Assembly: GCA_025927545.1 (NCBI GenBank)
Contig: JAICLE010000005.1
Location: 720 to 64,719 of the forward strand
Length of the DNA stretch: 64,000 nucleotides
Reading direction: 5' to 3'
Origin: Gemmatimonadales bacterium
GTDB taxonomy: Bacteria > Gemmatimonadota > Gemmatimonadetes > Gemmatimonadales > GWC2-71-9
Part shown: positions 31,514 to 32,684 of the stretch, piece by piece
Layout of the letters: each line of letters starts with the position of its first letter
Numbering within the stretch: the stretch's first letter is position 1
The notes under the pieces: model-generated
The model's input: the letters and a program-made list of their open reading frames with translations, nothing else
Told to the model about the DNA's origin: nothing
The model's database searches: none
Made by a program: the position numbers and the translations under genes

Positions 31514-31542
31514 TTGACACCGGCCGGCGGGGCGATGACACT
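31514..31542 (+). promoter_or_regulatory. Sigma70-type promoter upstream of the tRNA-Gly 5' remnant
   Basis: TTGACA (31514-31519), 17-bp spacer, GACACT (31537-31542). Confidence 0.65.
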
Positions 31543-31554
31543 CGCCTCTCGCTC

Positions 31555-31596
31555 GCGGGCGCGATTCAGTGATAGAATGCCGGCTTGCCAAGCTGG
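31555..31596 (+). pseudogene. Decayed 5' half of tRNA-Gly (att-like remnant)
   Basis: 37/42 identity to 32613-32654; includes D-arm and anticodon arm but no T-arm or 3' acceptor strand. Confidence 0.88.
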
Positions 31597-31695
31597 GCAC
31601 CTACTCGGCTAACTCCCGCCCAAGTCAGCGCCTCACAACGACTCCGAATCCCTCCCCGTGGGTTGCTGGTCTCTGCAAACCGTTCCCCGGCCCAT

Positions 31696-32232
31696 TCAGT
31701 AAGTGATCGTGCCCTCAATCGTGAAATGGGCAGTACCGGTACCAGCGACAGGGTCGAGAGCCGCGGTCCCCTTGGTGTAGGCCGTGCCCGCAGCATCAGC
31801 GAAGCGTCCGGTTCCGCCTCGGAAGCGCTCCGTACCTTCGAAGGTCGCCGTGAAGTCGGACAGGTTCGTGACACCCGTCCCGCTAAACGAGGAGTTCACT
31901 CGATCACCGTTGGCGGCGACATACGCCCCAGTGTTGGTGACGACCCCCGGCAGGAGCCCGTTGACCGGAGGCCCTGAGGGCACGACCGACTGTAGGACCG
32001 TGTTGTGGCTGAGTCCGAGATGGGAGAGTTGGCACGTATACTCGATCCTGAGATCGAGGCGGCCGTCTGGGGCAACGTCTAGTATCGTGACCTCGGTGTC
32101 GCAGCGGCCGCCCAATGGGTGCGAAACCTCGGAGTGCCCGCCTCGAGCGAACGACGGAGCAGTCGGAGTGTCCGTAGAAGAGCATGCTGCAAGCGCGACG
32201 AGGGTGGCGGCGCCAAATCCGGTCCTATGCAT
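31696..32232 (-). CDS. Hypothetical lipoprotein (beta-rich, 178 aa)
   Basis: GGAGG RBS before ATG 32232; lipobox LAAC; GGTGRFADAAG motif of dirigent/allene-oxide-cyclase-like barrels. Confidence 0.8.
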   Translation of the reverse strand: MHRTGFGAATLVALAACSSTDTPTAPSFARGGHSEVSHPLGGRCDTEVTILDVAPDGRLDLRIEYTCQLSHLGLSHNTVLQSVVPSGPPVNGLLPGVVTNTGAYVAANGDRVNSSFSGTGVTNLSDFTATFEGTERFRGGTGRFADAAGTAYTKGTAALDPVAGTGTAHFTIEGTITY

Positions 32233-32259
32233 GGTGGGCCTCCGGAGGTATGTGGCGCT

Positions 32260-32288
32260 ACGGTAGGGAACGGTACCAGAGTCGTCAA
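32260..32288 (-). promoter_or_regulatory. Sigma70-type promoter of the islet lipoprotein gene
   Basis: Minus strand TTGACG-N17-TACCGT. Confidence 0.55.
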
Positions 32289-32401
32289 GCGGACTCAGAA
32301 AGATCGGTGTGCAGCCGTCGTGAGTTGGTGTGTCTATCGTGATATGAAACCGGATACCAGGATTTAGTTCCCTCTCCATCCGCGAGGGGCCTTGTGGCAA
32401 G

Positions 32402-32539
32402 CCTGGTGGGCTGCATCGACGGCGTGAGATGGGGTCAGTGCTTCACAGACGTGGCAGCGGAGCCGCGACGGAGGTCCGCGGGCGCAAGATCATCGGGCCT
32501 CGCCCTGAGTGTTCGATATGCAGCGAACCTGTGCCGGAA
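32402..32539 (-). pseudogene. Possible degraded C-terminal fragment of a tyrosine integrase
   Basis: Translates FRHRFAAYRTLRARPDDLAPADLRRGSAATSVKH*PHLTPSMQ; spacing matches the RH-x19-LGH...Y-x-H pattern. Confidence 0.4.
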
Positions 32540-32543
32540 GGGC

Positions 32544-32572
32544 TTGATGTGTCGGCCACCTTTGGTCATATT
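32544..32572 (+). promoter_or_regulatory. Candidate sigma70-type promoter of the intact tRNA-Gly
   Basis: TTGATG-N17-CATATT, ending 40 bp upstream of the tRNA. Confidence 0.5.
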
Positions 32573-32612
32573 GGTCGAGTCACAGATTGCCAAGTCATTC
32601 TAGCGCAATTCC

Positions 32613-32684
32613 GCGGGCGTAATTCAGTGGTAGAATGCCAGCTTCCCAAGCTGGACGTCGCCGGTTCGAGTCCGGTCGCCCGCT
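32613..32684 (+). tRNA. tRNA-Gly (anticodon CCC)
   Basis: Cloverleaf: acceptor GCGGGCG/CGCCCGC, D-arm ATTC/GAAT, anticodon arm CCAGC-TTCCCAA-GCTGG, T-loop TTCGAGT; CCA not encoded. Confidence 0.97.

Follow-up and report, generated by a model that had tools for sequence, protein, structure and literature searches.

Conventional islands, as Williams is said to have laid out in Nucleic Acids Research in 2002, duplicate the 3' end of their target tRNA gene, with the crossover in the anticodon loop, the T loop or the 3' end. The rarity of the opposite, 5' mode is commonly explained by the need for the element to carry a promoter. In the bacterial example of Zhao and Williams from 2002, the element reportedly carries the 5' and not the 3' part of the target tRNA, the displaced fragment is the 5' part, and the element brings upstream DNA with it. 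A 2019 paper (PMC6563490) treats 3'-distal recombination into tRNA genes as typical and 5'-distal recombination as "considerably less frequent", and for the latter mode it cites Zhao and Williams 2002 for bacteria together with several archaeal cases. A literature search for other integrations at the 5' end of a tRNA gene found no further description. Here we analyze a locus within a 64,000-nucleotide (nt) stretch of DNA (the window) from a Gemmatimonadales bacterium, in which an islet of about 1 kb separates a partial 5' copy of tRNA-Gly(CCC) from the intact gene. The islet is likely the decayed remnant of an integrative, probably mobilizable element that entered tRNA-Gly(CCC) by means of a tyrosine recombinase and in the reversed orientation.

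The window belongs to a metagenome-assembled genome (MAG) of 3.48 Mb in 181 contigs that is 91% complete and is called G000 below. The other G-numbers designate the genomes with which it was compared, and these comprised a genus set of 103 genomes and family sets of 301 or 401 sampled genomes. Reading along the plus strand, the locus consists of phhA, a promoter-like site (P1), 12 nt, a 44-nt copy of part of the tRNA, about 100 nt, a minus-strand gene, 311 nt, a second promoter-like site (P2), 40 nt, the intact tRNA, a hairpin and a tadA-like gene (Table 1). ARAGORN finds 50 tRNAs in the assembly, and the intact gene at 32613-32685 is the sole CCC glycine tRNA of this set. The islet proper (31599-32612) is compositionally foreign, with a guanine-plus-cytosine (GC) content of 0.618 against 0.701 for the window, and only 0.16% of 1014-nt intervals are equally low.

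The partial copy (31555-31596) matches the first 42 nt of the intact tRNA at 37 of 42 positions, with mismatches at tRNA positions 8, 9, 18, 28 and 33. The likeness extends to tRNA position 44 (38/44, 31555-31598 versus 32613-32656), and BLASTN aligns the two copies at 88% over 43 nt (E 1.6e-9), their starts being 1058 bp apart. An earlier note on this DNA had described the same partial match and had remarked on the lower GC of the intervening DNA; its coordinates and counts, including the 37/42 match and the 1058-bp offset, all agree with our direct reading of the sequence, and so does its remark on composition. Past position 44, the likeness of the upstream copy to a tRNA is no better than that of shuffled sequences (score 11 versus a mean of 11), and the copy is not called as a tRNA by ARAGORN or by Rfam at permissive thresholds. 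Its anticodon triplet reads GCC. A relic of a tRNA-Gly(GCC) gene was considered and rejected, since the D arm of the copy is of the type found in the CCC gene and not of the type found in the GCC or TCC glycine tRNAs of G000.

The origin of this arrangement can be read from relatives in which the site is empty. The closest of these, G361 (98% amino acid (aa) identity in PhhA and 94.7% in TadA), carries phhA, TTGACA-N17-GACATT, 12 nt, an uninterrupted tRNA, the same terminator and tadA, and its flanks are identical to those of G000 at 578/600 and 564/601 positions. More generally, phhA is followed by a single tRNA-Gly(CCC) at all 19 congener loci, and in 18 of them the tRNA is identical to that of G000. 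The gap between the two genes is only 43-114 nt in 16 of the 19 (the unpublished genome G003 is among these 16), and most of the short gaps hold a conserved CTTGAC..N17..CACATT block, which stands at least a dozen nt from the start of the tRNA. With a strict regular expression, a TTGAC-type block is located upstream of the tRNA in at least 26 of 42 loci. The uninterrupted promoter and tRNA-Gly that the earlier note had expected in relatives are thus what G361 and the 16 short-gap congeners contain. Because the partial copy of G000 occupies the ancestral position, with the spacing behind P1 that is seen in G361, we take it to be the displaced original 5' part of the gene; on this comparison, the 5' part of the functional tRNA and the 1 kb upstream of it are inserted DNA. 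Between G000 and G361, P1 with its 12-nt leader is identical at 47/54 positions and the fragment at 38/44 (86%), as against 96% and 94% for the flanks, and this greater divergence fits relaxed constraint.

An old tandem duplication of tRNA-Gly(CCC) would also leave a tRNA-like sequence behind P1, if the upstream copy had then decayed and a gene had later been inserted between the two, and the different anticodon triplet (GCC) is what a diverged paralog might show. We regard this history as very unlikely, in view of the single gene behind P1 in G361, the foreign composition of the intervening DNA, the homology of both of its ends to the ends of another insert (see below) and the 3' part of the upstream copy, which is no more tRNA-like than shuffled sequence. 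Two complete tandem tRNA-Gly genes, which the earlier note had named as the mark of duplication and decay, were found in none of the 103 genus genomes. When these genomes were scanned for the first 42 nt of the tRNA in more than one copy, partial copies were found in G000 and G380, and the other hits were on redundant or strain-mixed contigs in G010, G382 and G388. In G382 and G388 both copies follow phhA, or the contigs are identical, which denotes strain mixture or redundancy, and G094 is a similar case; the two copies of G010, judged from the second-copy scan alone, lie at contig ends. A second copy of tRNA-Gly(CCC) is present in G266.

A MAG in 181 contigs is fragmented enough for a chimera to be considered, in which contigs of a P1 strain and of a P2 strain would have been joined through the tRNA sequence that the strains have in common; duplicate tRNA contigs of the kind that could feed such a join are present in G382, G388 and G010. 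The structure of G000 is matched, however, by one-piece contigs from two soil metagenome runs of two studies, covering 31311-32657 with 5 differences and 31306-32657 with 4 differences (99.6-99.7% identity). These contigs reach from the end of phhA through the partial copy and the islet to the first 45 nt of the tRNA, and none of the differences falls in the partial copy. Because the unbroken contigs come from two independent soil runs, the islet structure is not an artefact of the MAG. The divergence of the upstream copy (6/44) would also not arise from a join through identical sequence, and we give the chimera next to no weight. No joint skipping the islet was seen in the contigs of four runs, which is no evidence that such a form is absent.

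A much larger insert occupies the same site in the congener G380. There, phhA and P1 stand before a copy of tRNA positions 1-66 (66/66 positions as in the genus consensus), after which come about 11 kb of lower-GC DNA, TTGATGTG-N15-CATATT, a 39-nt leader and the intact tRNA, and the displaced copy stops exactly where the 3' acceptor strand should start. Both ends of this insert are homologous to those of the islet in G000. The right ends are 85.9% identical over 163 nt, and the sequences directly after the left junction agree in 29 of 39 aligned columns, a score that none of 5000 shuffles reached; their 22-mer core matches at 19/22. The left arm holds a complete hairpin in G380 and only the first half of it in G000. 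In a phhA tree of 42 rows, which include the unpublished genomes G003 and G346, the sister of G000 is the empty-site G361 (support 100/99) and G380 is placed elsewhere, and the split state of the tRNA needs two changes. We read the two cases as separate insertions of related elements because the genomes are apart on this tree and because the repeat is pristine in G380 and decayed in G000. The duplicated 5' part in G000 was probably longer than 42 nt at first; the copy may once have reached position 66 and then lost about a dozen nt, or the element may have had a shorter attachment site (attP). As its other expectation for relatives, the earlier note had named a larger element with an intact integrase and the same 5' repeat. 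The G380 insert bears out the larger size, the 5' repeat (here of 66 nt) and the homologous ends, but it has no integrase, and the integrase was found instead in other genera (G495 and G279). Beside the left junction of G380 lies an 81-aa open reading frame (ORF) with a weak HTH_17-like match (23.3 bits, cut-off 27).

As read from the assembled contigs, the arrangement of G000 recurs in at least three genera. In G231 an integrase stump is followed by tRNA positions 1-38, a hairpin, 4.8 kb of DNA, a second integrase stump and the intact tRNA, so that the insert is bounded by a 38-nt direct repeat of the tRNA 5' part. In G113 the native promoter, tRNA positions 1-38 and a hairpin of similar kind are on one contig and an integrase stump with the intact tRNA is on another; the left arms of G113 and G231 are alike by eye. 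In addition to ORFs without assignment, the 4.8-kb element of G231 (L136, G231:C85) encodes a PemK/MazF-type toxin (74.5 bits) and an NTF2-fold immunity protein (57.5 bits), at 3672-4016 and 7484-7837.

The right end of the islet is linked to a family of integrases. A leader motif, TAAGTCGTT, lies 13 nt before the tRNA in G380, G363, G113 and G279, and G000 has it in the degenerate form CAAGTCATT. In G279 this motif is part of the final codons of an ORF that continues to the edge of the contig and is co-oriented with the tRNA, and the motifs TGGRESE, HRSVPL, RFRHTY and LGH..RRVYGH of its product are, we presume, those of a tyrosine recombinase. The corresponding ORF is complete in G495 (478 aa, PF00589 at 48.9 bits), where it is also co-oriented with the tRNA and has as its TAA stop codon tRNA positions 8-10. 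Upstream of it are an HTH_17 gene (45.5 bits) and a second gene, whose product has a TraI-like middle domain (54.2 bits), and this gene set fits an integrative mobilizable or conjugative element. Integrase stumps occupy the same place before the tRNA in G140, G118 and G113 and are found twice in G231. The 23 nt before the tRNA of G000 match the integrase end of G279 at 16/23 positions, compared with 3-10/23 at 18 P1-type control loci. Translated in the integrase frame, this part of G000 still gives ..SHSSAIPRA*, the stop being the TAA of tRNA positions 8-10 that also closes the ORFs of G279 and G495. The G495-type integrase family is present in 87 of the 401 sampled family genomes and in 35 of the 103 genus genomes.

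Several further searches were made for parts of the element. A TBLASTN search of the window and of the P2-type loci with the C terminus of the G279 integrase returned nothing at the expected places. A metagenome scan for a tRNA cut after position 66 gave five matches, all of them complete tRNA-Gly genes that belong to other taxa and differ in the acceptor stem, and the number of viral contigs with the tRNA 27-66 segment was zero. When phage and plasmid collections were compared with P2 plus the tRNA, the tRNA part alone matched (38-41% of the query) and P2 matched nowhere.

In four genomes of the genus, G405, G396, G382 and G395, relatives of this integrase (about 50-64% aa identity to that of G495) have the conventional orientation: they are encoded on the opposite strand and converge with tRNA-Gly(CCC) at its 3' end. 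The convergent gene of G382 is frameshifted, and a 12-nt match to tRNA positions 61-72 (E 0.043) that lies 2.6 kb downstream may be the other junction. A tandem TTGGCACCACC / TTGACACCACG repeat, which encodes GTTxGTT, is present in the C-terminal coding region of the integrase, within the 60-90 nt that precede the tRNA (loci L133, L134, L135, L136, L100 and L095). The TTGACACC within this repeat resembles the -35 block of native P1, CTTGACACC, and similar GGCACC words occur in the left arm of G113. Such words may be arm-type sites of the integrase or a captured tRNA promoter.

The inserted DNA may also have brought a promoter. In six genomes of the genus (G000, G380, G363, G384, G009 and G312), the block TTGATGTG-N15-CATWTT precedes the tRNA by 37-40 nt, and the DNA that surrounds it differs among them; BLASTN of the P2 region across the genus is convincing only in G380, the other six matches being short and situated elsewhere. 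By eye, the P2 region of G363, a member of the G000/G361 clade, seems too unlike that of G000 to stem from the same event. MAFFT places P2 on TTGACA/TTGGCA...CAGCC in the C-terminal coding region of the integrase in other genera, and the tRNA promoter of the element may sit inside the integrase gene, its -10 box having improved after the coding constraint was lost. We refer to P1 and P2 as promoter-like because they are conserved in relatives and not because of a consensus score. Its position and conservation suggest that P2 is likely what now drives the tRNA, the expression of which would then depend on element-derived DNA, and this dependence could be the reason why the right end of the element has been retained. 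Alternatively, read-through from P1 across the islet, followed by processing, could yield the mature tRNA. That route is possible because tRNAs are cut from long precursors, and it is made more plausible by the loss of half of the left-arm hairpin in G000. A weak Rfam match to SECIS_3 over P1 (31512-31539; 22.9 bits against a gathering score of 63, E 0.034) is taken as chance.

We propose the following course of events. The integrase gene would lie at the right end of the element, in the same direction as the tRNA, and attP would comprise the 3' end of the integrase gene, tRNA positions 1 to about 38-66 and the hairpin, which would serve as the terminator of the integrase gene. Integration would leave native P1, the native 5' part and the element hairpin at the left junction (31514-31643 in the window). 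At the right junction the 5' part carried by the element would be fused to the native 3' part, giving an intact gene behind element DNA with P2. Later, in G000, the integrase and almost all of the cargo would have been deleted, with the left-arm relic, the lipoprotein gene, P2 and the final 23 nt of the integrase gene staying behind, and the orphaned 5' fragment and P1 would have drifted afterwards. The proposal of the earlier note, a reversed integration in which the element restored the 5' half of the tRNA, finds support in the empty site, in the ends of the G380 insert and in the native terminator and tadA beside the intact gene. Among the features of tRNA-targeting elements, the locus has flanking direct repeats, an empty site in a relative, foreign composition and sporadic cargo, and the islet itself contains no integrase. 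As for the reversed orientation, it is the 5' part of the tRNA that has been duplicated and displaced, and the intact gene borders the end of the element farther from the native promoter. The islet is to be regarded as an immobile remnant and not as an element, because G000 is without an integrase of this family.

A similar layout could be produced without an integrase by homology-facilitated illegitimate recombination, if a Gemmatimonadales donor fragment with the lipoprotein gene, P2 and tRNA-Gly had been anchored in the tRNA or in downstream homology and its other end had been joined inside the resident tRNA. Such an event would be in keeping with the absence of an integrase from G000 and from the G380 insert and with the variable ends of the repeat (38, 44 and 66 nt), and the P2-tRNA modules that four congeners carry, with varied neighbours and no displaced copy, would be available donors. 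The join would be random, however, whereas G000 and G380, two independent cases, are alike right after the left junction (29/39, 0/5000 shuffles), G113 and G231 also have a common left arm (by eye) and the right-end leader corresponds to the 3' end of the integrase ORF in other genera. We consider this explanation improbable.

Several observations do weigh against insertion by a tyrosine recombinase. The 5' repeat ends at tRNA position 38 in G113 and G231, at 44 in G000 and at 66 in G380; because its extent varies in this way, the crossover cannot be placed at a single site, and the shorter copy of G000 needs either a later deletion or a different attP. In G380 the intact tRNA and the displaced copy differ at two T-arm positions, with which no simple placement of the crossover fits; of these, the G to A difference in the T loop corresponds to the form found in other genera. 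No integrase was detected in the G380 insert with Pfam on 26 ORFs no shorter than 120 aa (of which 24 lie inside the insert), with PHROGs and NCBIfam on 19-20 ORFs, or with six-frame searches for PF00589 and PF00239. The integrase family has no match in the G000 assembly, which is 91% complete, and no remnant of it is detectable in the G000 islet at the protein level. The link between G000 and the integrase consists of 23 nt plus conserved spacing. The elements of G495 and G279 are cut by contig ends, and no free or complete integrase-bearing element was recovered with both ends. P2 occurs without a displaced 5' copy in G363, G384, G009 and G312, each of which requires an extra deletion; most simply, these four genomes represent later stages in which the orphaned left junction has been deleted. 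Finally, a sigma-70 and terminator scan gave no promoter site at its thresholds, leaving both P1 and P2 uncalled, and reported nothing but the native terminator.

A broader idea is possible, though we hold it doubtful: a single integrase lineage, with an attP that includes the tRNA promoter and the tRNA 5' part in the end of its own gene, would rewire the sole tRNA-Gly(CCC) of the host, placing it on element DNA at each integration, and the host could not afterwards lose the right end. If this were true, it would account for graded fossils, from whole integrases (G495, G279) through stumps (G140, G118, G231, G113) to 23-nt relics with an improved -10 box (G000, G380, G363), and for lineages in which an element-derived promoter has fully replaced the native one. 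The relatives in conventional orientation at the same tRNA would then mark a switch in the polarity of the attachment site within one family.

Table 1. Features of the tRNA-Gly(CCC) locus in the window, and integrase relatives in other genomes (attL-like and attR-like, resembling a left or right attachment site)
Feature	Location	Strand	Evidence
phhA (phenylalanine 4-monooxygenase), native left flank	30562..31500	+	Pfam Biopterin_H 6.5e-42; NCBIfam NF008877 301 bits; upstream of tRNA-Gly(CCC) in 19/19 congener loci
P1, ancestral promoter-like site TTGACA-N17-GACACT	31514..31542	+	Same block at G361 empty site; boxes TTGACA 31514-31519 and GACACT 31537-31542, then 12 nt to partial copy start at 31555
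Displaced 5' part of tRNA-Gly(CCC), attL-like, decayed	31555..31598	+	38/44 versus G361 empty-site tRNA; ancestral spacing behind P1
Left-arm relic of element, with 5' half of hairpin that is complete in G380	31609..31643	+	29/39 aligned columns identical to G380 post-junction sequence
Cargo gene, 178-aa putative lipoprotein, no recognised family	31696..32232	-	ORF; lipoprotein-like signal peptide
Foreign spacer, no recognised feature, GC 0.59	32233..32543		Composition; integrase remnant not detectable at protein level
P2, promoter-like TTGATG-N17-CATATT, element-derived	32544..32572	+	Block conserved in six genomes of genus; boxes TTGATG 32544-32549 and CATATT 32567-32572, 40 nt before tRNA start at 32613
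Relic of last codons of integrase gene, now tRNA leader	32590..32612	+	16/23 versus G279 integrase 3' end; 17/23 versus G380
Functional single-copy tRNA-Gly(CCC), attR-like; 5' part element-derived, 3' part native	32613..32685	+	ARAGORN; Rfam tRNA 67.6 bits
Native terminator-like hairpin, then T run	32698..32737	+	Terminator scan; same sequence in G361
tadA-like deaminase, native right flank	32814..33275	+	Pfam dCMP_cyt_deam_1 8.5e-26; TadA model 111 bits (below cut-off); G361 94.7% aa
3'-convergent integrase relatives	G405:C5:418699-419307; G396:C26:110259-110716; G382:C6:28681-30245 (L072 6682-8246); G395:C4:18697-19032	opposite to tRNA	

The lipoprotein encoded by the cargo gene has no match to a Pfam, NCBIfam or PHROG family. 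Homologs of it occur in 13 of the 301 sampled family genomes, and its nearest neighbours in the ESM Atlas are hypothetical proteins of Gemmatimonadota. The closest copy of the gene is a truncated one on an island in G287 (82.6% nt identity). The distance is 4.5 kb to an integrase that belongs to the family described above and abuts a tRNA-Arg gene, and this fits the idea that the lipoprotein gene travels on these elements. Two exact 151-nt contigs from soil RNA library X18 (32028-32178 and 32185-32335) cover the 5' part of the cargo gene and the sequence upstream of it; contigs of an RNA library do not by themselves prove transcription, and these are at most a weak hint that the cargo gene is transcribed.

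Other insertions have also struck the stretch from phhA to the tRNA, which is a hot spot for them. In G012 (G012:C226, L004) a small minus-strand ORF lies upstream of an intact P1, with about 570 nt between the phhA stop and P1. In G009 (L019/L040) and G312 (L088) a spacer of about 1040 nt holds a plus-strand membrane-protein gene that ends just before a P2-type block, and P1 is gone. The downstream side is variable too: among about 55 loci (L002-L020, L041-L070), tadA lies 3' of the tRNA only in G000, G361 and G358, and G380 has a DUF899 gene downstream of its tRNA. ARAGORN also reports an 89-nt "tRNA-Gly(TCC)" at G000:C28:15714-15802, which is aberrant in sequence and probably a false call. 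The earlier note had called the cargo gene the only minus-strand gene left of dif. The gene at 31696-32232 is indeed on the minus strand, and on a crude ORF map based on GC at third codon positions (GC3) nearly all genes up to about 50 kb are on the plus strand, so that the remark is roughly right, with one doubtful minus-strand ORF at 14936-16072. Near 50 kb on the same map gene orientation flips from almost all plus to almost all minus, which fits a terminus or dif region such as the mention of dif in that note implies.

Taken together, uncultured soil Gemmatimonadales offer a natural series at one tRNA gene: besides the empty site there are a fresh 11-kb insert, relatives that carry the integrase, and a 1-kb fossil. 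The series displays the aftermath of insertion, in which the native promoter and the 5' fragment drift and the element end is kept beside a single-copy tRNA, and it provides a testable case of a host gene coming to depend on mobile-element DNA. For software that seeks islands by 3' fragments alone the locus is a warning, and the integrase family, given its apparent specificity for tRNA-Gly(CCC), would be a candidate tool for site-specific integration.

In comparison with known systems, the locus resembles conventional tRNA islands and prophages in having a tyrosine integrase beside attP, a tRNA target, repeats made of a tRNA segment, foreign cargo and decay to remnants without an integrase. 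It differs from them in the opposite orientation, by which the native promoter is cut off from the functional gene. In Myxococcus phage Mx8 and in Sulfolobus SSV1, attP lies within or overlaps the integrase gene, and our family is like these in that the integrase coding sequence overlaps the attachment site. The SSV1 integrase is split on integration and the C terminus of the Mx8 integrase is altered; here the integrase ORF should stay intact, because only its last three codons overlap the tRNA-like segment. With the element of Zhao and Williams, which is said to carry the 5' part of its target, our locus would have that feature in common, and it would differ in an integrase ORF that ends in the 5' end of the tRNA, in its Gemmatimonadales host and in being a 1-kb remnant without an integrase. 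Relative to the archaeal and other 5'-distal cases of PMC6563490, the locus belongs to the same rare 5' class and is distinguished by a bacterial host, a presumably different integrase lineage, a decay series and an empty site in the sister genome. The islet is a further case of this known, rare integration on the 5' side of a tRNA gene, now in Gemmatimonadales.

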